Shown here: piece by piece, positions 45,777-58,902 of the stretch
How positions within the stretch are numbered: position 1 is the first letter of the stretch
Layout of the letters: every line of letters begins with the position of its first letter
Made by a program: the position numbers and the translations under genes
The notes under the pieces: model-generated
Databases searched by the model: none
Seen by the model: only the letters and a program-made list of their open reading frames with translations
Told to the model about the DNA's origin: nothing
NCBI GenBank assembly: GCA_035510715.1
Contig: DATKGQ010000019.1
Span: forward strand, 15,153 to 79,152
Origin: Candidatus Saccharimonadales bacterium
GTDB lineage: Bacteria; Patescibacteriota; Saccharimonadia; Saccharimonadales; UBA4665
Length of the DNA: 64,000 nucleotides
Direction of reading: 5' to 3'

Positions 45777-47372
45777 CTAGTAACCGAAACGAATTGGTTT
45801 TAAGGCAATTTTTTTAAGCTTAGCCAGGATTGACTTAGCTTCTTCGAGTCCGAATAACACCGACATCGTCAGGTAGACTAATCCAGTCACACCGGCAATC
45901 AGCGATAATTTACTGCCCAGAGCAATTACGCCACGGTCTTTCAGCTCTAACGGGAACAACTGGACCATAATAAAGCCAGCCACCACGCTGAAACCGGTTA
46001 CTGAAATTATTTTGACCAGGCCATATAAGAATTTCAGGTCAAGTAATTTATGGTCACGTTTCACCATAATAATAGACAGCGTGAAGACTTCCAGCATGGC
46101 CGACAATGATTGGCTGATCGCCAGTCCGCTGACACCGTAGCCGTGAGGCGCCGGCCGGGCCAGAAAAGTCACCAAGGTAATGTTAATGATAATGATAATG
46201 ACTGATACGCATAACGGCGTAATGGTGTCTTTATGGGAGTAAAACCAGCGCGAGATAATCGTATAGAGCACCGCGAAGAAAATAAAGACCGTCAAGAAAC
46301 CGAAAATGGTGGCAATATTATTGCTGGCGTTGGTAAAAATTATCCGGGCCAGGTACCCCCGGGTATAGAAGCATATTACCGCTACCGGCATAGCTACCCA
46401 GATCATTGCCCGGACAACCTGTAAAAATTCCTTACGGAACAAATCCGGCCGGCCCTGCGACAGGCGGTTGTTCATTTGCGGAAAGGCAGCTGTGCTGATC
46501 GCCGTACCGATCAGAAAGGTCGGTGCTGTGGCCAGGACATAGGCGTTGGCATAAAAACTTATATTGCCGGTTCCCAGCCGGCGGGCAAAGTGGGTTTCAA
46601 CAATACTCTCAACCTGATCAATACCCTGGTCAAGCGAGCGTGGGGGTAACTGGCGGAGAACCGTTTTAAAATCTGCACTCCGCCAAAGAATTTTTGGCGA
46701 CCAGTGAAAGTTAGTTCCGAACAGGCCGGTGCAAACGACAGCCAGTTGCAGCACGGCGCCGCACAGGGCGCCGATACCTAGCCCGATAATTCCGATGTTA
46801 TGCCTAAAGATGAAGATACTGGCGATAATCAAGGCGTTATAGAACATTGGCGCCAGGGCATAAAAGAAAAACCGGCCGAGCGCCTGTTGGGTAGCGGTCA
46901 GAACACCGGATATGGTAAATAAAAGCGGGTTAAAGGCCAGAAAACGCATGATTGTGACAGTATTGTGCAGTTGCTGAGGCGTTAAGTTAGGCGAAATAAT
47001 GTAGTGCACCATCGGTTCGGCAAAAATGAAAATCAATACGCCGACAACGAACATGACCATTACCAGTAAGTTAAGCAGGCTGGTTGAAATTTCCCACATT
47101 CCCCGCTTATCACCCTTGTGCAGACGATCGGCTAAGACCGGCATGAAGGCTACGCCCAGTGCTCCGGCGGCCAAGGTAAAGAAGAAAAAGTCCGGAATAT
47201 TAAACGCCGCGAAGTAAGAGTCGGTACTGCCGGGACCGGTCAGCGGAAAGTTACCATTAACCAGTTTGGTCCTTAAGAAACCAAGCCCCTGACCAAGCAT
47301 AGCGCTACCGACCAGCAGAGTGGCAATATTCGTAAGACCGGGGTGTGTTCTTTTCTTCGTTGTTGGATTCAT
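45777..47372 (-). CDS. murJ: Lipid II flippase MurJ (MviN)
   Basis: 531 aa, about 14 TM helices. GFLRTKLV, YFAAFNIPDFFF and LAPMFYN resemble MurJ/MOP motifs. Confidence 0.85.
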   Translation of the reverse strand: MNPTTKKRTHPGLTNIATLLVGSAMLGQGLGFLRTKLVNGNFPLTGPGSTDSYFAAFNIPDFFFFTLAAGALGVAFMPVLADRLHKGDKRGMWEISTSLLNLLVMVMFVVGVLIFIFAEPMVHYIISPNLTPQQLHNTVTIMRFLAFNPLLFTISGVLTATQQALGRFFFYALAPMFYNALIIASIFIFRHNIGIIGLGIGALCGAVLQLAVVCTGLFGTNFHWSPKILWRSADFKTVLRQLPPRSLDQGIDQVESIVETHFARRLGTGNISFYANAYVLATAPTFLIGTAISTAAFPQMNNRLSQGRPDLFRKEFLQVVRAMIWVAMPVAVICFYTRGYLARIIFTNASNNIATIFGFLTVFIFFAVLYTIISRWFYSHKDTITPLCVSVIIIIINITLVTFLARPAPHGYGVSGLAISQSLSAMLEVFTLSIIMVKRDHKLLDLKFLYGLVKIISVTGFSVVAGFIMVQLFPLELKDRGVIALGSKLSLIAGVTGLVYLTMSVLFGLEEAKSILAKLKKIALKPIRFGY

Positions 47373-47449: not shown

Positions 47450-48502
47450 TCAAACAATCAGGCCGCCGCCGACACAGTGGTTATCAGCTTCATAGATCAC
47501 CGCTGATTGACCAGCCGTAACAGCCCTGACATCTTCTGCCAAAGTCAGCCTCAACCGGTTGCGTGACAATTTCCGCATCCCGGTAATAGCTACCGGCGCC
47601 GAACGGTAGCGGACACAGACTTCGTGGCGGCTGGTTCCATCAGGCGGGCCGTTAATCCAGTGGATGTCGCCCAGGTCGATCGAGTGCCGCCATAACTGTT
47701 CATCCTGCAAGTCAGTCGTAACAAAAATCTTATTCCGCATAATATCTTTACCGGTGACATAGTAAGGCAAACCGCCGCCGACATGCAGACCATGGCGTTG
47801 GCCAATAGTATATAAAATTGCCCCGTCATGCGTACCGACCAGTTTGCCGTTTTGATCGATAATTGGTCCCGTGGTTTGGGGGCCGAGTTCGGCTACCAGG
47901 AATTCGGCAATCGGAATCTCGCCGATAAAGCATATCCCCTGGCTGTCTTTTTTGTCCGCCGTGGCCAAATTTAAATGCTTGGCGATAGACCGGATTTGCG
48001 GTTTGGTGTAGGTACCCAGCGGCATAATCGTCTGGCTCAGGGCTTTGGCGCTCACCCGGTACAAAAAATACGTCTGATCCTTATTGCTGTCTTGGGCCCT
48101 AAACAACTTACCGCCAACCAGCCGGGCGTAATGTCCGGTGGCAATCATATCAGCACCGTCATCAAGAGCAGTCTGTAAAAACAATTTAAATTTTATTTCC
48201 TGGTTGCATAAAACATCCGGATTAGGAGTACGGCCGGCCCGGTACTCTTCAAGCATAACTGCCACCACCTGCTGGCGGTACTGTAACTCAAAATCATAAA
48301 CTTTAAAGGGTATATCCAATTGCACGGCCACTCTTTTGGCATCCTGAAAATCTGTTTTCCAGGAACAGCTGTAGCCGGCTACACTAGCAGTCCAATTCTT
48401 CATATACACACCTGTCACACTGTAACCTTGTTGCTTGAGCAGGGCGGCGGTAACCGAGCTGTCAACGCCGCCGGACATACCGACATATACTTTTTTAGTC
48501 AT
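47450..48502 (-). CDS. mnmA: tRNA 2-thiouridine(34) synthase
   Basis: VYVGMSGGVDSSVTAALL PP-loop, NPDVLCN, ATGHYAR, KDQTYFL. Confidence 0.95.
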   Translation of the reverse strand: MTKKVYVGMSGGVDSSVTAALLKQQGYSVTGVYMKNWTASVAGYSCSWKTDFQDAKRVAVQLDIPFKVYDFELQYRQQVVAVMLEEYRAGRTPNPDVLCNQEIKFKLFLQTALDDGADMIATGHYARLVGGKLFRAQDSNKDQTYFLYRVSAKALSQTIMPLGTYTKPQIRSIAKHLNLATADKKDSQGICFIGEIPIAEFLVAELGPQTTGPIIDQNGKLVGTHDGAILYTIGQRHGLHVGGGLPYYVTGKDIMRNKIFVTTDLQDEQLWRHSIDLGDIHWINGPPDGTSRHEVCVRYRSAPVAITGMRKLSRNRLRLTLAEDVRAVTAGQSAVIYEADNHCVGGGLIV

Positions 48503-48531: not shown

Positions 48532-49494
48532 TTACTGATAGCGCATTTGTTCATCACTGCGCTCAATCCGGCGCCGCAGACTGAACAGTTCATAACGTTG
48601 TCCGAGCCAAAATGAAATCAGCAGCAGCGGCAACATGACAACCGCCGGCCACCAAATTACTTTGGTAACTGTTTGGACCGGTGACGTGGTTGTCGCTAAT
48701 TGGGTTTTCGTGCCGTTGGCTAGACCGACTAATTGCAGAAAGGCCGTTTCACCGTTCTTGTCTGTCGCTTGGATTGTAATAGTATAGGTGCCGGCATCCT
48801 TATAAGTATGGGTAAGCGTGACATTCCCCTGGCTGGCTTCGCTAAGCAGCTGCCGCTGGCCGCCGTCACCCCAATCTATACTCAGCGCGTAGGGCGTCGT
48901 ACCGCCGTTAATAATTATCGGCCAGCTGATTTGTTGATTCGGATTGGCCCCCTGCTTGGCATATATGCTGGTCAGCGACAAACTTATGCCGAAGGCGGCC
49001 AATTGCGGGTTATTGTAGCTGACAGTTACGGAGTTGGATACCGGACCAGCCTGGCCGAGGTTGTCATAGTCGTCAGCCGTCAGCACATTCTGGTTATAAA
49101 AAAGTGTTACTTGCAGCGAAAAGCTGCCACCGGCGCACATTGTCGAACCAATAAAGGTGTTATTCGAAAATACTTTTATCAACAAACCATTCAGACAGAG
49201 GCCGGCAACGGTAATCGGTTGAGACGTAAAGGTTTGTCCGTTAGTCGGTGTTGTTATCGTGGCTGGTTGGCTCGGCGGCGGACCAGAGACAGTACCCTCC
49301 AGGCCGATTGAGCCGTTTTGGGGGTTTTGCGGCGCAGTCGCCGCTGCAGCCAAAGCACCAGAAGATAAGATTAATATTATACCTAGTAAAATACCAGCAA
49401 TATAGCGACAGATTTTACTGCCGAAGAGTTTTTTCCATAACAGATCATAAAAGACTTTTGAACGTGTGCGCACAACTAACCTAAAGTATAGCAC
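48532..49494 (-). CDS. Surface protein with signal/anchor, Ig-like domain, PKD domain and C-terminal TM anchor
   Basis: IDWGDGGQ....THTYKDAGTYTITIQATDKNG is the PKD signature. ITTPTNGQTFTSQPITVAG...GSFSLQV is Big/Ig-like. C-terminal helix VIWWPAVVMLPLLLISFWL followed by a basic tail. Confidence 0.7.
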   Translation of the reverse strand: MLYFRLVVRTRSKVFYDLLWKKLFGSKICRYIAGILLGIILILSSGALAAAATAPQNPQNGSIGLEGTVSGPPPSQPATITTPTNGQTFTSQPITVAGLCLNGLLIKVFSNNTFIGSTMCAGGSFSLQVTLFYNQNVLTADDYDNLGQAGPVSNSVTVSYNNPQLAAFGISLSLTSIYAKQGANPNQQISWPIIINGGTTPYALSIDWGDGGQRQLLSEASQGNVTLTHTYKDAGTYTITIQATDKNGETAFLQLVGLANGTKTQLATTTSPVQTVTKVIWWPAVVMLPLLLISFWLGQRYELFSLRRRIERSDEQMRYQ

Positions 49495-49550
49495 CTAAAA
49501 GCATAGGCACTTTTTCCCTAGCCGCAAAAAACATTTGTACCTTGGTGTAA

Positions 49551-50627
49551 TTAAGACCGGAATCGGATTTTATGAATCAGCCAGGACACGGCGTATAGCA
49601 CTGCACCCAGTACCACCAAAACGATGATCAAGAACCAGTACGGCAAGTACCAGAAAGTCGTGGTTGCCAGGATCTGCTGTGTCGGGTTGCCGTTCAAGCC
49701 GTAATAGACAGCCAATTCGGCGGTGTAACGGCCAGGCCCCAGTTTCGGGTTCTCACAGACAATCTGACTGGACTTCATCCCATTCGGGCCGGTAATTTGC
49801 TTACTTCCAACCTTAATACAGGCTTCAAAGCGCCTGGTTTGGCCAATTAGGGCCAGCGAATCATTGGGGTTTGCGCTGGTAATTTCGCGGACTACTTTGC
49901 CATGGAAATTCTTAAGCAGAATGCTGCCGGATGGTTGTTCGGCAACATTGCCTTCATTGTCCAGTAAATAGGCTAACTCTTTCGGCTCCGACGTAAAGAA
50001 CCAATTTATAAATTGTCCGGTTTGGTCATCGGCGCTAGGCACAAATGCGCCATACTGGACAAGACGCATCTGTTCGGTTGTCTTGCCGGGGACAGTCACA
50101 AAGATTAAGCTGGCACTCGATGCGGCCACGCCGAGATTGCCCTTGCCGCTAATACTTTGGGCGGCATATTCAACCGCGCTGTAGTAACTGCCTGCCCCCT
50201 GGTTAGCCGGTATGACGATGGTAAAAGGAATACTTGTGGATGATGAGGCGGCAACAGTCACAGTCTTGGGGATAGTAATAAATGGCTTGATTGACCAGGC
50301 TGTTTGCGGGGCGTTGGGCGCAATTATCAGTACCGGAGCACCGCTTTTATTGGCGGCCTTAAAATCAACAATCTTAACGACTACTGTCAAAGCCTGGGTT
50401 GAGCTCAGATCAGACAGATAAAGCGTGCCTGACTGCTGTTGGCCGGCATTAATCGTGAAGTCTTCCCTGGGGGTGATACCAAGCCCGTTAGATTGGGCGC
50501 TGGCGGTTAATGGTAAGAGCGTCAGCAATAACAGAATGGTGCTCATTACTCCGGTAATCAGAAGTTTTGCTAGTTGGAATGGACGCTTGGGGTAACTATT
50601 ACGGAACATTATACAAAATTCTATCAT
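49551..50627 (-). CDS. DUF916/DUF3324-like cell-surface protein (signal peptide, C-terminal TM anchor)
   Basis: Signal peptide ending LTASA-QS. ITPREDFTINAGQQQSGTLYLSDLS...VVVKIVDF and TIVIPANQGAGSYYSAVEY resemble DUF916 strands. C-terminal WFLIIVLVVLGAVLYAVSWL followed by HKIRFRS. Its start lies 1 nt after the upstream gene's stop. Confidence 0.6.
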   Translation of the reverse strand: MIEFCIMFRNSYPKRPFQLAKLLITGVMSTILLLLTLLPLTASAQSNGLGITPREDFTINAGQQQSGTLYLSDLSSTQALTVVVKIVDFKAANKSGAPVLIIAPNAPQTAWSIKPFITIPKTVTVAASSSTSIPFTIVIPANQGAGSYYSAVEYAAQSISGKGNLGVAASSASLIFVTVPGKTTEQMRLVQYGAFVPSADDQTGQFINWFFTSEPKELAYLLDNEGNVAEQPSGSILLKNFHGKVVREITSANPNDSLALIGQTRRFEACIKVGSKQITGPNGMKSSQIVCENPKLGPGRYTAELAVYYGLNGNPTQQILATTTFWYLPYWFLIIVLVVLGAVLYAVSWLIHKIRFRS

Positions 50628-50628
50628 T

Positions 50629-51660
50629 TTAGAAGCTTGCCGTACAGATATATGTTAGTGTCGTGTCGTAAATGCCGACGGTTTGTGACGAGGATATATT
50701 AACAATGTAGCTGACAGTCAGTTTCGCCAGATTTGTCGGACCAGGCGAATAAGCAACTAAATCGCCGGAGTTAAACTGGTACTCGTTGGACACGTCATAG
50801 GCTGTAGCCAGCATGGTTGAGCCGCCGGCCGGATCATTGCCGATTACCGGGTTGGTATTAGCCCGGAGATTGAGGCCGAATTGCGAAGTGCCGATAGTAT
50901 TTGCCGTTTGCGAAGCAAGATTTTTGATAACGTAACTACCCGAGGTCATGGTTGTACCGTTGACTGTTATAACAACACCCGAATTAGCATTGGTACCGAC
51001 TTCCATCATTGATGTCGCGGCCGAAGTTTTAAGTGAGCTGAAATCCCCGAATTGGATAAAATAGCCGCTGGCGGTTGAACAGTTACCGGGAATAGTCAGT
51101 CCGGCACAAAAGTCAAGAATCGGCGGCACCACGGTATTGATACTCACTCCCGTGGAAGTGGCTGATGCTACCGCGCCATAATCCGTATAGGGGCCTGTCC
51201 CGTCAAATGTGGGGAAAGTCGAGATACGGACAAAAAAAGTTTGCACCGGATTTGACGGATTAGCCATATTGCTAAAAATATACTGTACCTGTTCGGAGTG
51301 GCCCGGAGCCGGCGGACGCTCCAAAAGTATCATATTGCTATCCTGCTGATAGATTACAAAGCCCGTTTCGCCGCTTTGCTCTGCTAAAACGCCATTCGAG
51401 GCGTCAAGACCGGCCGGCGAATCGCAGGGTTCAATTACCAGCGGCATGGTACAAAACAAAAAACTGATCGAGCCAACATTGGTATTATCAGGCAGCGTAA
51501 ACGTAAAAGCATAGTCATTAACTGCCGATGGTACCGGACTACTGATCTCCAGGCTGCGGAAGTTTAATGCGGCGGCCCGGACTAACACCGGTGATGACAG
51601 GCTGATACCAATCATTACCGCCAGCAAACATTCTGCAAATGCATATTTTATCTTAGGCAT
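50629..51660 (-). CDS. Secreted beta-rich surface protein, paralog family member P3
   Basis: Signal peptide. Shares FTFTLPDNTNVGSISFLFCTMPL...C.SPAGLDAS, TFFVRIS, QFGLNLRAN and the C-terminal GIYDTTLTYICTASF with the 409-aa neighbour. Confidence 0.7.
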   Translation of the reverse strand: MPKIKYAFAECLLAVMIGISLSSPVLVRAAALNFRSLEISSPVPSAVNDYAFTFTLPDNTNVGSISFLFCTMPLVIEPCDSPAGLDASNGVLAEQSGETGFVIYQQDSNMILLERPPAPGHSEQVQYIFSNMANPSNPVQTFFVRISTFPTFDGTGPYTDYGAVASATSTGVSINTVVPPILDFCAGLTIPGNCSTASGYFIQFGDFSSLKTSAATSMMEVGTNANSGVVITVNGTTMTSGSYVIKNLASQTANTIGTSQFGLNLRANTNPVIGNDPAGGSTMLATAYDVSNEYQFNSGDLVAYSPGPTNLAKLTVSYIVNISSSQTVGIYDTTLTYICTASF

Positions 51661-51701
51661 TACTTAATACTTTACTATGCTTTAGTGAATGTTTTGAAGA
51701 A

Positions 51702-52931
51702 CTAATAGGTTGGAACAGCAATATAGGTGATTGTAGTGGTATAGATACCGGCCGGCGTAGCGTAGGCGATGTTAGCCATATATCGGACTGAACCGGTATC
51801 GCAGATAATGATGCCGGTTGATGACGAAATAATTTTAGGATTTGTGACGCTGGAAGTATCAAAAGCAAAATAGGCCGTACCCCCGGACGTAATCGTTCCG
51901 GCACCCTGGGAATAGTTAACCGGCGAAGAGCTGGGAGCTAAGTAGGCAAAACTGTAACCGCTGCCAGATTCGGTATCGCTGCTATCAAGCGCCAGGCCGA
52001 ATTGGGGAATACCTGGGGTACTATTGGCAGCCGTCGTACCGATAGCGGTAATGTTGTTGGTGCCGTTAGCCAGCGTTTTGCCGGAATATTCAATAACCAG
52101 CCCGTGCGTAGCATTAGTGCTAACCCGGAAGTAAGAGTGGGCGGAATAGGTAATAAGCGGACTCAAAACGCCATTGCTATCGCCAAGGGTCAGCGCTCCG
52201 GTATCGCCAAAGGGAGAACAATTACCAGCTGGCGAGGTAACAGTCGTGCCGACTGAGAAAGCCAACTCTTCCTGGACTTTAGCCGTAATATTTACTTGTG
52301 TGGCAGTCGAGCTGGCTACCGTACCCTGATCTACCGGAGTTGAAAAGGCATTATCAGAATATAGTGTAATCCTAACAAAAAATGTAGAGTTATCGGTTGT
52401 CGGGTTAGTAATATAATCTGTTGAAAGTCCGCCGAATGATATTGCCACCGCCGTTGATATATTTGTCTCGTCCCCCGGCGTTGTTCGGCTAACTTTAATG
52501 TCGCTAGTAGACGCGCTGCTTATAACAAATGGCGAACCGCCGGTGTCAGTCCAGCCGGTTTGAGATTGTACAGCAAGAACAGTGCTGGCGTTTAAGCCGG
52601 TCGGCGCGATGCAGGATGTGCCCGCTAAAGGAGTCGTGCAGTACAGAAAATCAATCGAACCGATATTTCCGGTTTGGGGCAAAATAAATGAGAACGTTTC
52701 GCCGGTCTCAGCTCCGTTACCGCCGCTGCCGGCAGCAGCCGGATTACCAGCCATGTCAGTAGTGATCGTACCATTGGCGGAGCTAGTAACCGACAAACTT
52801 CGCTGAATAAGTGCAGCCGGATAGGCGCTGACAAGCTGGACAGGTAAAAATTCCGTGGCAATCATAGCCACAAAAAATATGCCAATAAAACCGTACACCG
52901 CACGGACAATATTAGGAAATGATTTTTTCAT
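51702..52931 (-). CDS. Secreted beta-rich surface protein, paralog family member P2
   Basis: Signal peptide (VSA-YP). FSFILPQTGNIGSIDFLYCTTPL...CIAPTGLNAS, TFFVRIT, QFGLAL, C-terminal PAGIYTTTITYIAVPTY. Confidence 0.7.
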   Translation of the reverse strand: MKKSFPNIVRAVYGFIGIFFVAMIATEFLPVQLVSAYPAALIQRSLSVTSSANGTITTDMAGNPAAAGSGGNGAETGETFSFILPQTGNIGSIDFLYCTTPLAGTSCIAPTGLNASTVLAVQSQTGWTDTGGSPFVISSASTSDIKVSRTTPGDETNISTAVAISFGGLSTDYITNPTTDNSTFFVRITLYSDNAFSTPVDQGTVASSTATQVNITAKVQEELAFSVGTTVTSPAGNCSPFGDTGALTLGDSNGVLSPLITYSAHSYFRVSTNATHGLVIEYSGKTLANGTNNITAIGTTAANSTPGIPQFGLALDSSDTESGSGYSFAYLAPSSSPVNYSQGAGTITSGGTAYFAFDTSSVTNPKIISSSTGIIICDTGSVRYMANIAYATPAGIYTTTITYIAVPTY

Positions 52932-53028
52932 CTAGTTTATATAGTTTTTATTTTTTTACTACAAATTAGTTGTAGCATAAGCATCAAGCTTGTACAATAA
53001 GTTATCCACAGCCAGCACTATTTAGCAA

Positions 53029-53790
53029 TTAAAATGTCGGTACCGCCACAACGTCTACGTAGCCGGCCGTATTGGATATGTTACCGTACATCCCGGCCGG
53101 AGTTAGTGATGAAATGTTCTCTATAATTGACATCGTATATTGTGTTTCACCGGAGCTTGAATTACTGTAAGCAATGTTTGTGCCGGGCACAAACATAAAC
53201 TCGTTCTGATAATTATAATTAGGCTCGACTGCGCCGAAACTGAACGGCGGAGAACCGGCTGGTAACTGCAGCGGAACAGCCCCAATCGACGGGCTGGTAT
53301 TAGCGGTAAGGTTAACGCCAAATTGTTCCGTTCCCGGAAATGAATACGTCGGCGTCGTCAGGGGATTAAGGGGATGACCGCCCGGACCATCGGTCGGAGA
53401 ACCGCCGGAAAGCATAACAATGTAACCGGTACTGAGGTAATTCTCAACAGTAAAAGTTGTTGACGCATACGACACCGCAGAAGTGCTTAAATAACCCAGG
53501 TCGAATACCCCGCCAACCACATTAACCGCCAGTTCCGGAGTGTCTGTTGTATTAAAACCGTTTTGGGCCTGATAAGCACTCCCCTTGCTGTTGCCAACAC
53601 CAAGTTCGCCGATCGAAACTTGAGCCTGATAGCTGTTCGAAGTTGCCTGTAAGGCACTGCCGCTGCCGACAAAGACTTCATTAATCGAATAATTGGTCGA
53701 CGTATACTGCGCCAGAACCGTCGGCGAAATAATGAACAGGCCGGCCAAAATAAAACTTAAGACCGCCAAAATATAGTGCCATTTTTTCAT
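53029..53790 (-). CDS. Secreted beta-rich surface protein, short family member P1
   Basis: Signal peptide (VLA-QY). QFGVNLTAN and the C-terminal TPAGMYGNISNTAGYVDVVAVPTF are shared with P2 and P3. 253 aa, first gene of the operon. Confidence 0.65.
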   Translation of the reverse strand: MKKWHYILAVLSFILAGLFIISPTVLAQYTSTNYSINEVFVGSGSALQATSNSYQAQVSIGELGVGNSKGSAYQAQNGFNTTDTPELAVNVVGGVFDLGYLSTSAVSYASTTFTVENYLSTGYIVMLSGGSPTDGPGGHPLNPLTTPTYSFPGTEQFGVNLTANTSPSIGAVPLQLPAGSPPFSFGAVEPNYNYQNEFMFVPGTNIAYSNSSSGETQYTMSIIENISSLTPAGMYGNISNTAGYVDVVAVPTF

Positions 53791-53893: not shown

Positions 53894-54922
53894 ATGGAGC
53901 AAGGCGAGCCGGTAGAGGACAACGAGAACTCACTCGAAGGGTCCAGTACGGTTGTGGAATCCAGCGGCAATAACGCGGTACCGGTCAGTCAGCCGGAAAA
54001 TACCTCGGTTGAGCCGGTAGCTCCCCAACCGGAACCAATTGCCTCGCCCCCTGCCTCGCCGGCGGCAGCGCCCAAGCACCATGCCTTTAATTTCTTGAGG
54101 CATCTGAATATCTTTTTACTGTGTTTCATTTTGGTTTTTATTATCGCCGTGGTTATCGCGATTGTGGCCATTACTAAAAACCGCAACTCCACTTCCACGT
54201 CAACGCCAAGCGCTTCAACTTTAACCCAAAGCCAATTGGAAAAAATTGTCAATAACAGCAATACGACTTCAGTCGGCAGCCCCAATCAGGTTCTTAATAT
54301 TTCGGCCAGTACGATTTTTGGTGAACAGGTATTGATGCGCCAGGATCTGGATGTGGCAGGTAGTATCAAAATCGGCGGCAGTTTAGAATTACCGTCCCTC
54401 AGCGTACTTGGCACCGGTACGTTTGGGTTAATCCAAGCCGATAAATTAACGGTCTCCGGCGACAGCACCTTACAGGGTAATGTCAGTATCTCTCAGGCCT
54501 TGACTGTGGCCGGCACGACAAACTTCAGCGGCGCTGTTTCGGCCAACCAGTTGACAGTGCAATCACTGCAGCTTAACGGCGATATCGTTATCAATCACCA
54601 TATTGATACCGGCGGCCTAACACCGGCACGAACACCCGGGAATGCCTTGGGCAACGGCGGCACGGTATCAGTTAACGGCTCGGACACGGCCGGCGCAATT
54701 ACGATCGGTACCGGCAGCTCGCCGGCGCCAGGTTGTTTTGTCACTATCACTTTCGGCAAGGCTTTTAATAACACCCCAGACGTGGTTGTTACGCCGGTCG
54801 GAGTGGCAGCTAGCGGTATAGCATACTATATTACCAGATCGGCCACGGACTTTAGCATCTGCTCCAGCAGCACGCCGCCGGCTGGACAATCTTTCGGTTT
54901 CGATTACCTCGCAATTGATTAG
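53894..54922 (+). CDS. Membrane-anchored surface protein with beta-helix-like repeats and a lectin-like C-terminal domain
   Basis: Pro-rich N-terminus. TM segment IFLLCFILVFIIAVVIAIVAI. Repetitive region reading LDVAGSIKIGGSLEL...LTVSGDSTLQGNVSISQALTVAGTTNFSGAVSANQLTV. C-terminal TITFGKAFNNTPDVVVTPVG...YYITRSATDFSI resembles an H-type lectin fold pattern. Confidence 0.6.
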   Translation: MEQGEPVEDNENSLEGSSTVVESSGNNAVPVSQPENTSVEPVAPQPEPIASPPASPAAAPKHHAFNFLRHLNIFLLCFILVFIIAVVIAIVAITKNRNSTSTSTPSASTLTQSQLEKIVNNSNTTSVGSPNQVLNISASTIFGEQVLMRQDLDVAGSIKIGGSLELPSLSVLGTGTFGLIQADKLTVSGDSTLQGNVSISQALTVAGTTNFSGAVSANQLTVQSLQLNGDIVINHHIDTGGLTPARTPGNALGNGGTVSVNGSDTAGAITIGTGSSPAPGCFVTITFGKAFNNTPDVVVTPVGVAASGIAYYITRSATDFSICSSSTPPAGQSFGFDYLAID

Positions 54923-54960: not shown

Positions 54961-55272
54961 TTAAATATCGAGAAAAACTGTTACCTGGTTGGCTTTAACA
55001 TGCATAATGCCCCGGGCAATCCTGATACGCAGCGTATCATCAACAGTGTGGATTACTAGCTCGCACGGATTAAGCAGGGTAATAAAATTATGATGCCTGG
55101 GCAGGATGTCAAAAGGTCCGGTATTGTTAACGGCCGAGATACTCAGCGCGTCCCGGTCAAAGTAGGTCTGAAAAGGGGAATGGACTTTGACATGCAACTG
55201 TTCAACGGCTGACGGTTGGTTTAAAATAACCGTTTGATTAGAGCCGGGCCGGTCGGTCGGTAAAGTTGCCAT
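54961..55272 (-). CDS. atpC: F-type ATPase epsilon subunit (short, beta-sandwich only)
   Basis: 103 aa. FDRDALSISAVNNTGPFDILPRHHNFITLL matches the epsilon N-terminal domain (G.fgiLp.H.p....L). No C-terminal helical hairpin. Confidence 0.75.
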   Translation of the reverse strand: MATLPTDRPGSNQTVILNQPSAVEQLHVKVHSPFQTYFDRDALSISAVNNTGPFDILPRHHNFITLLNPCELVIHTVDDTLRIRIARGIMHVKANQVTVFLDI

Positions 55273-55274
55273 AA

Positions 55275-57426
<2,152 letters not shown>

Positions 57427-57430
<4 letters not shown>

Positions 57431-58902
57431 TTGGTTGCCTCGCTGGCAGCCGGTTCCGCGGCGGTCGGTGCCGGTTTTGTCTTAACGGCAATCAGACAAA
57501 GGGATTTAAGCTTATCACGGACGATGCTAAAATCTTTTTCACTTTTGATTTCGTTAACTAAAGCCGGCGCATTCTTTTTCAACAGCGCAACATCAACTTG
57601 CTCATTGTTGCCAAGGTTAAGAATGACATCGAGCATCAGCTGTTGGCACAGTAAGTTATAGGTCTCTCCCGGCCGTTGGTTAAACATCGAGTACAGTAAT
57701 TTGCCACGGATTAAATCCTGACGGGTTTGAAGGGCCAGTTCAGATCCGAAATGAGCATATTCGGAAGCTTGTTCATAGACCGCGAGAGACTGCTGGACCA
57801 ATTGGTTTTGTTTCTTTTGGCGGCTGTTCTGGCCGCGGCCGCCGACGCGGGTGACACTTAAACCGACATTGATTGCCGGACGGACGGTATCGCGGAAGAC
57901 TTTCATGTCCAATATCCACTGGCCGTCAGTAATTGACATCACGTTCGTCGGCAAATAAGCGGTAATGTCGCCGGCTGGCGTCAACACCAGCGGTATGGCC
58001 GTCAGAGAATTGTGATTATCGGCCAGTTTGCCGGCCCGCTCCAATAAACTGGAGTGCGCATAGAACATATCGCCGGGATACGAGTCACGGCCGGGACTGG
58101 CTCCGGAAAGTAAGGAAATTTCACGGTACACCTGGGCATGGCTGGTCAAATCATCGTAGATGACCAACACGTCACGGTTGCACTGCTGCCACAAGTACTC
58201 ACCCAAGGCACAACCGACATACGGCGCCAAGTAGCTTATGGTTAATGATTCGGCCATAGTTGACACGACGACAATCGAGTTTTTCATCGCGTTGTTGACT
58301 TGTAACTGATCAATCAACGTATCGGCGTCAGTACGCCGCTTGGCAATCAGTACATAAATAACGACTACATCCGTGCTGCGCTGGTTGATGGCCAGTTGCG
58401 TCGCCAGCGTACTCTTACCCGACTTGCTGTCGCCGAGAATGGCGATCCTTTGGCCGCGGACTAACGGGAATAAGACATCAACCAAACCGATACCGGTTTC
58501 AAGCTGGTTATCAAGAATTTCGCGTTTATAAAGCATCGGCGCGGCGGCAAAAATCGGCCAGACGGTGTCGGCAGCAATCGGCCCCTTGCCATCAAGCGGA
58601 TCGCCGGTTACCGAAACTACCCGGCCGATATAATCTTTGCCTACTTTCGTGACCAGCGAATCATGCTGTTCAACCACAACCATGCCGGTAGAAAGTTCCG
58701 TTGAACCCAAATGCAGGACAATCACGTGGTCTTCCAGAATCCGGTGTACAAAGCCCTTGCTGCCGTCTTCAAACATTACCAGGGCTCTTAAATTTATCGG
58801 TTGCAAGCCCTTAACCCTGATTAAAAAATGATCAACGGCGATAATTTCACCGACCGACCGGCCGGCAGCGACAAGTTTCTCAAAATGACGGCTGTTGCTC
58901 AT
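57427..58902 (-). CDS. atpA: F-type ATPase alpha subunit (divergent)
   Basis: Walker [12 protein letters not shown] (canonical is GDRQTGKT), [41 protein letters not shown]. Confidence 0.9.

Follow-up and report, generated by a model that had tools for sequence, protein, structure and literature searches.

We analyzed a 64,000-nucleotide stretch (hereafter, the window) of contig DATKGQ010000019.1 from a Candidatus Saccharimonadales bacterium, in which five co-directional open reading frames (ORFs) lie on the minus strand: P1 (53029–53790, 253 aa), P2 (51702–52931, 409 aa), P3 (50629–51660, 343 aa), P4 (49551–50627, 358 aa), and P5 (48532–49494, 320 aa). An initial annotation made from the letters alone had described them as an operon of surface proteins, either a WxL/Csc-like locus or an undescribed surface fiber. 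The ORF list bore out all five frames with these coordinates and lengths, whereas the 1-nt spacing claimed between P3 and P4 is true only for the first ATG of P4; an ATG 18 nt downstream, which is preferred by gene callers (24 metagenomic contigs) and by the family consensus, gives a P4 of 352 aa and a 19-nt gap, and the likewise preferred start of P5 gives 313 aa. A hydrophobic signal-like segment occurs at the N-terminus of all five proteins. We conclude, with a probability of roughly 0.88, that the locus is a pam operon for a Pam-type pilus, a fiber that is specific to the candidate phyla radiation (CPR), needs no usher, and is built by donor-strand exchange.

This identification is carried by three models of NCBIfam release 20 (NF058578, NF058579, and NF058581). 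P1 matched the equivalog NF058579 (CPR_pilus_PamT) over residues 6–253 with 293.1 bits (cutoff 240), and P5 matched the equivalog NF058578 (CPR_pilus_PamR, "pilus system RbmA-like protein PamR") with 405.2 bits (cutoff 300). The model of the C-terminal domain (CTD) of the Pam pilus system pilin subunit (NF058581, cutoff 55) was passed by P1, P2, and P3 with 124.6, 98.5, and 164 bits, respectively. A Pfam search of P1–P3 gave no match, which is why an earlier reader had found nothing; a PHROGs search of six proteins (the five operon products and the divergently oriented neighbor described below) and single-sequence PDB searches with P2, P3, and P4 were likewise negative. P3 is identical to the GenBank protein VMQ52_02180 of a Candidatus Saccharimonadales metagenome-assembled genome (MAG), four of the five genes are annotated as "hypothetical" in public records, and the locus with unchanged gene order is also present on contigs of ENA, JGI, and Logan assemblies. 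For this locus, we establish which families P1, P2, P3, and P5 belong to, which fold P4 has, and that synteny is conserved, with four of the five genes placed via curated models or via fold and synteny.

The Pam system has been described very recently, in a preprint only, and the present locus adds another member to it. In earlier cryo-electron tomography, such filaments anchored the parasite to its Gordonia host. In the preprint, thin filaments of Candidatus Mycosynbacter amalyticus, a parasite from the Saccharimonadia, were solved by cryo-electron microscopy (cryo-EM) to 2.8 and 3.6 Å and revealed two two-domain pilins, PamA and PamB, in which the strand linking the N-terminal domain (NTD) to the CTD enters the open, truncated Ig-like CTD of a neighboring subunit and thereby builds the PamA/PamB polymer (10.64898/2026.03.03.709456). 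The operon has the order PamC-B-R-D-E-A-T, where PamE is a minor pilin of low abundance, PamT is a single-domain tip pilin, and PamC and PamD are two-domain chaperone-like proteins with a C-terminal transmembrane (TM) helix, predicted to pair with PamB (PamC) and with PamT and PamA (PamD). PamR resembles RbmA and has an additional strand at its N-terminus and a TM helix at its C-terminus; it is proposed to act as terminator and tether, and its N-terminus is predicted to insert into PamE. A "tail fibre-like" gene is a conserved neighbor of pam, as are the genes of ATP synthase (10.64898/2026.03.03.709456). With these structures and the curated models at hand, the fiber can no longer be called undescribed. 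The present locus shares with that of M. amalyticus JR1 the PamT and PamR equivalogs, a pilin CTD in three paralogues, a conserved linker, a two-Ig chaperone-like TM protein, the order T-A-E-D-R, the neighboring genes, and a Saccharimonadia host, and the masses of P1, P3, and P5 (26.5, 36.0, and 34.6 kDa) match those of M. amalyticus PamT, PamE, and PamR (25.6, 38.6, and 32.8 kDa).

P1 is PamT, the single-domain tip or initiator pilin (26.5-kDa precursor), and comprises a signal peptide (residues 1–27), a Gly/Ser/Tyr-rich region (28–83), and a truncated Ig-like pilin domain (93–253). Its orthologues are the first operon gene in seven relatives. The domain is 34% identical to the CTD of P3 over 139 aa (E = 1e-9), and hhalign of the PamT profile against the P3-family CTD gave a probability of 99.8% (E = 3e-30). 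PamT orthologues conserve the Gly/Ser/Tyr-rich stretch (about 55 aa) with short "S-x-x-Y-...-G" repeats (window 53515–53709; P1 residues 28–92). In P1, this region is followed by the strand PELAVNVV, which can be aligned to the P2 and P3 donor linkers; PamT is said to have no linker strand (10.64898/2026.03.03.709456).

P2 and P3 are two-domain Pam pilins that are 31% identical over their full length (E = 6e-29). P2, in the PamA position, consists of a signal peptide (1–36), an NTD β-sandwich with a C98/C107 pair, a linker (219–229), and an acceptor CTD (245–409); gene order is what provisionally makes it PamA. P3 (36.0 kDa), in the PamE position, consists of a signal peptide (1–29), an NTD (30–170), a linker (176–187), and a CTD (198–343), and its AlphaFold2 (AF2) model (predicted local distance difference test score, pLDDT, 88.2) shows an N-terminal β-sandwich (33–167), a short linker, and a C-terminal β domain (213–341). 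The paralogy of P1–P3 proposed initially is hence borne out well beyond chance. Their signal-like segments and their S/T/G/N/A-rich (45–53%), charge-poor (D/E/K/R, 6–9%) composition are confirmed too, and no further paralogue was found in the window. Of the motifs that had been listed as shared, P2 and P3 contain, as quoted, the 37-residue Cys-pair motif as well as TFFVRI[TS], and G[IM]Y and the C-terminal strands are present in P1–P3, whereas "QFG[LV]xL..AN" as typed matches nothing: QFG[LV]xL occurs in all three, and the corrected full motif is QFG[LV]xLxAN, with AN in P1 and P3 only. The 2428 homologues of P3 are all labeled "hypothetical" and belong nearly all to Saccharimonadales or Patescibacteria. 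A few close homologues are labeled as Nevskiaceae or Candidatus Binatia MAG proteins; these labels probably reflect mis-binning of Saccharimonadales contigs and not a genuine presence beyond the CPR.

The predicted donor strands are the linkers of P3 (TVVPPILDFCAG, residues 176–187; 51100–51135, minus strand) and P2 (VQEELAFSVGT, residues 219–229; 52245–52277, minus strand), which align with each other. In an alignment of the 64-member pilin family, the P3 linker and the C-terminal strand tie as the most conserved 10-residue window (information 3.6), V178, L182, F184, and C185 of the linker are invariant, and the best-conserved stretches are TVVPPILDFC (176–185), TTMTSG (236–241), QFGLNLRAN (260–268), and YDTTLTYICT (331–340). 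This pattern of linker, QFG loop, and last strand agrees with the conserved donor linker and binding site reported for PamA and PamB. The C-terminal strand of P3 (GIYDTTLTYICTASF; 50632–50676, minus strand), which is the shared motif recognized initially, has equivalents in P2 (51705–51749) and P1 (53032–53064); across the family, no variation is seen at its residues G329, Y331, T334, T336, Y337, and F343. Donor-strand complementation, which the initial annotation had suggested, holds as the assembly principle, but the C-terminal strand as the donor was rejected in favor of the linker, because the NTD–CTD linker is what is donated in the solved PamA/PamB filaments; the C-terminal strand belongs to the acceptor domain. 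An invariant aromatic residue directly after this last strand is the exact terminus of every pilin; if chaperone-usher pilins are a guide, such an end could allow the terminal carboxylate to dock in the cleft of a chaperone. The PamE-position family has two invariant Cys pairs (C70/C79 and C185/C194) and, in addition, an unpaired Cys in the last strand (Cys339 of P3 in TYICTASF; window 50641–50643) that is at least 90% conserved; this residue could be a free thiol or form an intermolecular disulfide at the fiber base.

P4 (mature isoelectric point, pI, 9.1) is a chaperone-like protein in the PamD position, placed by fold and synteny. It is composed of a signal peptide, Ig-like domain 1 (47–181), Ig-like domain 2 (182–328), and a C-terminal TM helix (330–357). 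The signal peptide and the C-terminal helix with its basic tail were already noted initially and are confirmed here (TM segment 333–351, tail KIRFRS). The AF2 model (pLDDT 87.8) has two β-sandwich domains (49–328) followed by the C-terminal helix (330–357). A long β-hairpin (residues 146–179; 50091–50192, minus strand), disordered at its tip (pLDDT < 50 at 166–168) and carrying the family invariants A169, L174, F176, V179, P180, and G181, is a candidate for the complementing strand, by likeness to the hairpin of WxLIP, which becomes ordered on WxL binding, and to the G1 strands of chaperone-usher (CU) chaperones. The top three PDB matches in Foldseek came from the E. faecium EfmWxLIP1 entries 9i1y and 9i25 (free and in complex with a long WxL protein; E = 3e-11 to 8e-11), followed by the chaperones CfaA, CsuC, DraB, Caf1M, FaeE, and CupB2 (E = 7e-9 to 4e-6).

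P5 (34.6 kDa; 320 or 313 aa) is PamR, an RbmA-like protein with a proposed terminator and membrane-tether role, and orthologues were found in all nine relatives compared. It comprises a signal peptide (to about residue 54), an N-terminal strand (60–71), an Ig-like domain (79–158), a PKD-like domain (200–250), and a TM helix (279–297). The Ig-like, PKD, and anchor regions seen initially are all confirmed, with a PKD match at residues 200–250 that exceeds the Pfam cutoff (27.4 vs 23.5 bits) and a weak Ig-like match. The strand at the mature N-terminus (NGSIGLEGTVSG; 49282–49317, minus strand) is predicted to plug the groove of the last pilin; its pattern P-x-x-G-S-x-[GA]-[LM]-x-[GAT] is kept in 10 of 10 PamR orthologues, in keeping with the idea that PamR inserts into the last pilin. 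PamR is predicted in the preprint to have two tandem FnIII/Ig-like domains as in RbmA, a scaffold of the biofilm matrix of Vibrio cholerae, to which P5 adds the N-terminal strand, the C-terminal TM anchor, and a PKD-type signature; its role is a proposed one. In our Foldseek searches with the models of P3 and P4, RbmA was seen among the matches of P4 only.

We compared the locus with those of nine divergent Saccharimonadales MAGs, in which relatives of P3 are 35–71% identical and those of all five proteins 25–74% identical. The gene order is kept across the nine, as synteny of the operon would have it: ATP synthase beta and epsilon genes, a divergent 342-aa gene, PamT, one to three two-domain pilins, a P4-like protein, PamR, and mnmA. 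Three loci (L009, L012, and L013) have an extra pilin and a second P4-like protein between PamR and mnmA. The seven genes of L013 correspond to the published layout, including a PamA-size pilin of 555 aa and a PamB-size pilin of 390 aa; the present proteins are about 25–45% identical to those of such seven-gene relatives. The window and two relatives (L007 and L008) have the five-gene core without PamB and PamC. The presence of PamB and PamC varies among relatives, so the pair is not family-defining and is an optional module. Given the pairings predicted in the preprint (PamD with PamT and PamA; PamC with PamB), PamB and PamC seem to form a cognate module whose two genes are gained or lost jointly.

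The neighborhood also conforms to the published description. Head-to-head with PamT lies a gene on the plus strand (53894–54922) for a 342-aa protein with a single TM helix (73–91) and a β-rich ectodomain, an arrangement found in seven of the seven relatives whose contig covers that side. The protein has a Pro/Glu-rich N-terminal tail and weak Bactofilin-like (E = 1e-4) and H-type lectin (H_lectin; E = 0.06) matches, with no NCBIfam or PHROG family. It is probably the "tail fibre-like protein" of the preprint, possibly part of the system, and could be a membrane-anchored adhesin working with the pilus. Beyond it are the minus-strand F1 ATP synthase genes for epsilon (54961–55272), beta (55275–56582), gamma (56579–57430), and alpha (57427–58902), which confirms the adjacency to the ATP synthase operon reported initially; this adjacency is kept in four relatives (L008, L009, L014, and L015). 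On the other side, mnmA (47450–48502, minus strand) begins 29 nt after P5 and is followed by murJ (45777–47372, minus strand); mnmA is also the downstream neighbor in five relatives (L007, L008, L009, L012, and L013), and cotranscription of mnmA and murJ with the pilus genes is possible. The GC content is flat with no anomaly over 48–54 kb, and a horizontal-transfer island was rejected.

One alternative is that the locus encodes a CPR version of the Firmicute Csc/WxL complex, in which P4 would act as a WxLIP holding non-polymerizing P1–P3 on the wall, that is, an adhesin complex and no filament. In a WxLIP, a signal peptide precedes two Ig-like domains (DUF916, or PGBD, and DUF3324, or HBD) and a TM helix, and in AlphaFold models a strand of its hairpin completes the WxL β-sandwich (PMC10599100). 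P4 has this same build, has EfmWxLIP1 (free and long-WxL-bound) as its best structural matches, and is basic, as are the WxLIPs of L. plantarum. WxLIP_PGBD (DUF916) was matched below threshold in 56 of 60 P4-family members (P4 itself: 19.9 bits vs a GA cutoff of 27.3; E = 7.7e-4), and EfmWxLIP1 was the sole match of the P4-family profile against PDB sequences (E = 0.7). For profile comparisons, we assembled eight genuine plasmid-borne Csc/WxL clusters by tblastn against plasmids, which gave 13 WxL domains and seven WxLIPs. The full-length hhalign score of the P4 family against WxLIP (probability 96.6%, E = 7e-10) was rejected as inflated by the signal peptide and TM helix (PamR reached 71% via its TM helix); after trimming of both, the probability was 69% overall and 78% for domain 1 (E = 2e-5, 88 columns), with nothing for domain 2, compared with 0.5–8% for control families. 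The similarity to the DUF916 domain is therefore weak but reproducible, whereas the likeness to DUF3324 that had also been suggested, which would concern domain 2, has no sequence support. The clusters are parallel in their logic as well, with a domain-only small protein, larger N-terminally extended ones, a TM protein with two Ig-like domains, and a further small protein that is anchored, and the C-terminal strands are alike (G-x-Y-x-T-T-[IL]-T-[WY]). However, the WxL domain (PF13731) was matched neither by P1–P3 (E up to 1) nor by any of the 64 pilin-family members, and hhalign of the pilin and PamT profiles against the 13 genuine WxL domains gave probabilities of 0.9% and 0.6%; the only segment that aligned, not significantly, was the C-terminal strand (e.g., TGTYSTTITWELSADP of a WxL protein vs AGIYTTTITYIAVPTY of P2). 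Homology of the Pam CTD to the WxL domain is thus not supported, and in the P3 whole-chain Foldseek search, the first 50 matches did not include the WxL chain of 9i25. The operon also has no W-x-L motif, with Tyr or Ile at the Trp positions, and no LPXTG protein or sortase, with P5 anchored by a TM helix instead, whereas genuine clusters, which belong to another phylum, have LPXTG genes. Furthermore, P1, P2, P3, and P5 pass curated Pam cutoffs, and orthologous proteins form filaments in M. amalyticus; we found no paper reporting that WxL proteins do so. We therefore consider a WxL/Csc locus very unlikely; what stands of the initial WxL idea is that P4 is nearest to a DUF916-type WxLIP among solved structures, and not that P1–P3 are WxL proteins.

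Two further explanations are less probable still. A classical or archaic CU pilus, or a spore-coat-U (SCPU/Csu) pilus as the initial annotation had considered, would account for the CU chaperones (CfaA, CsuC, Caf1M, DraB, FaeE, and CupB2) among the structural matches of P4, for PapG among the fold matches of P3, for weak matches to Pfam "Fimbrial" in 4 of 64 pilin relatives (best E = 0.015), and for donor-strand exchange as the assembly principle. Pam and CU pili (Pap/Fim, CFA/I, Csu, and Caf1) indeed share a truncated Ig-like domain that is completed by a chaperone and then by the next subunit, a tip-first and terminator-last order (PapH-like logic), and a two-domain, boomerang-shaped chaperone fold. 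They differ in that Pam has no usher or outer membrane, an anchored chaperone, an internal linker as the donor, and an extended rather than coiled fiber, and Pam proteins belong to no CU sequence family. Consistent with these differences, we found no usher gene in the operon or the window ORFs scanned, P4 is TM-anchored rather than soluble and periplasmic, the pilins are two-domain proteins donating an internal linker rather than an N-terminal extension, and no member matched PapD_N, PapD_C (PF00345/PF02753), or SCPU in Pfam, with the PapD family also unmatched among 60 P4-family members; in M. amalyticus cells, neither an outer membrane nor trans-envelope assembly machinery is described (10.64898/2026.03.03.709456). 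We give this explanation hardly any weight, and the same is true of a chance cluster of unrelated Ig-like adhesins or sortase-type pilins (MSCRAMM, AgI/II, or TasA-like). The latter draws on whole-chain Foldseek matches of P3 to ClfA, SdrG, CNA, AgI/II C-domains, and BslA (E = 1e-4 to 1e-3, low TM-scores), but the operon proteins and window ORFs scanned showed neither an LPXTG or pilin motif nor a sortase or isopeptide-domain family, the operon is strictly conserved in distant relatives, and the curated Pam matches speak against chance clustering.

Several points nevertheless weigh against reading the locus as a pam operon, or limit how far that reading reaches. The equations P2 = PamA, P3 = PamE, and P4 = PamD are drawn from synteny and size, and the pilin in the PamA position is about 110–145 aa shorter here (409 vs about 520–555 aa). 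No NCBIfam model was matched by P4 or by the two chaperone-like proteins of L013 (11017–12078 and 14784–15872), and proteins of the P4 type likely stay "hypothetical" even where PamT and PamR receive names. The whole-chain Foldseek matches of the P3 model, two-domain Ig-like adhesins and integrin calf domains with TM-scores of 0.2–0.3, are generic, and the P3-family profile gave only spurious PARP14 matches in PDB. The PamB/PamC pair is absent downstream of P5 and elsewhere in the window, leaving five genes here against seven in M. amalyticus, and the fiber may thus differ from the two-segment pilus of that organism. PamA/PamB filaments with linker-strand exchange are experimentally shown in M. 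amalyticus only, whereas the preprint, which is not peer reviewed, proposes the function of the chaperones, the order of the subunits, and the role of the terminator on the basis of AlphaFold models. A promoter and terminator scan was uninformative, with counts equal to the shuffled expectation, and host attachment is a predicted role in this organism.

By analogy with M. amalyticus, we infer the following course of assembly for the Pam-type pilus. All five products would be exported by Sec. P4, held in the cytoplasmic membrane by its C-terminal helix, would lend a β-strand to the incomplete Ig-like CTD of new pilins. P1 (PamT), with its CTD only, would start the fiber at the distal tip, and P2 (PamA position) and then P3 (PamE position) would join head-to-tail, each filling the groove of the subunit before it with its own linker strand. 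P5 (PamR) would end growth by inserting its N-terminal strand into the last pilin, with its TM helix tethering the fiber to the membrane. Assembly would proceed without an ATPase, usher, or sortase, driven by folding energy; none of these three was found for assembly in the operon or window ORFs scanned. The fiber would probably make the first contact with the host cell. The initial view of a multi-subunit, secreted and membrane-anchored surface assembly of an episymbiont-type Saccharimonadales is thus supported, and host attachment remains a plausible role.

P4 may work like a WxLIP and may be its distant relative. The preprint compares PamC and PamD with FimC and PapD only and never mentions WxL (10.64898/2026.03.03.709456), and we found no paper linking WxL clusters with Pam or donor-strand assembly. 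Pam chaperones (P4, PamC, and PamD) and the Firmicute WxLIP could descend from one ancestral TM-anchored, strand-donating Ig tandem, with the two kinds of operon as branches of an ancient usher-less system of single-membrane envelopes, an idea that is possible but that we hold only tentatively and regard as doubtful on present evidence. If true, shared ancestry predicts either that WxL proteins, too, may exchange strands or that the pilins of Pam are WxL-like domains that have diverged strongly. Among the genuine clusters, complete ones are plasmid-borne in L. plantarum, L. brevis, Lc. garvieae, E. innesii, and E. faecalis (L016–L023). One small protein in a WxL position of L. plantarum ("hypothetical protein") ends in GTYSGTIDYNIS, with Tyr for the expected Trp, as in Pam pilins.

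Through its reproducible likeness to WxLIP, P4 could be used to test an evolutionary and mechanistic connection of Pam pili with two other systems, namely the WxL/Csc adhesion clusters, which are poorly understood and occur in lactobacilli, enterococci, and Listeria, and the chaperone-usher pili of Gram-negative bacteria. Pam pili are a newly recognized, CPR-specific class of fibers and probably the first-contact organelle of ultrasmall parasitic bacteria; the present locus, from an uncultured Saccharimonadales lineage, is a compact form with five genes (for a tip, two pilins, a single chaperone, and a tether).

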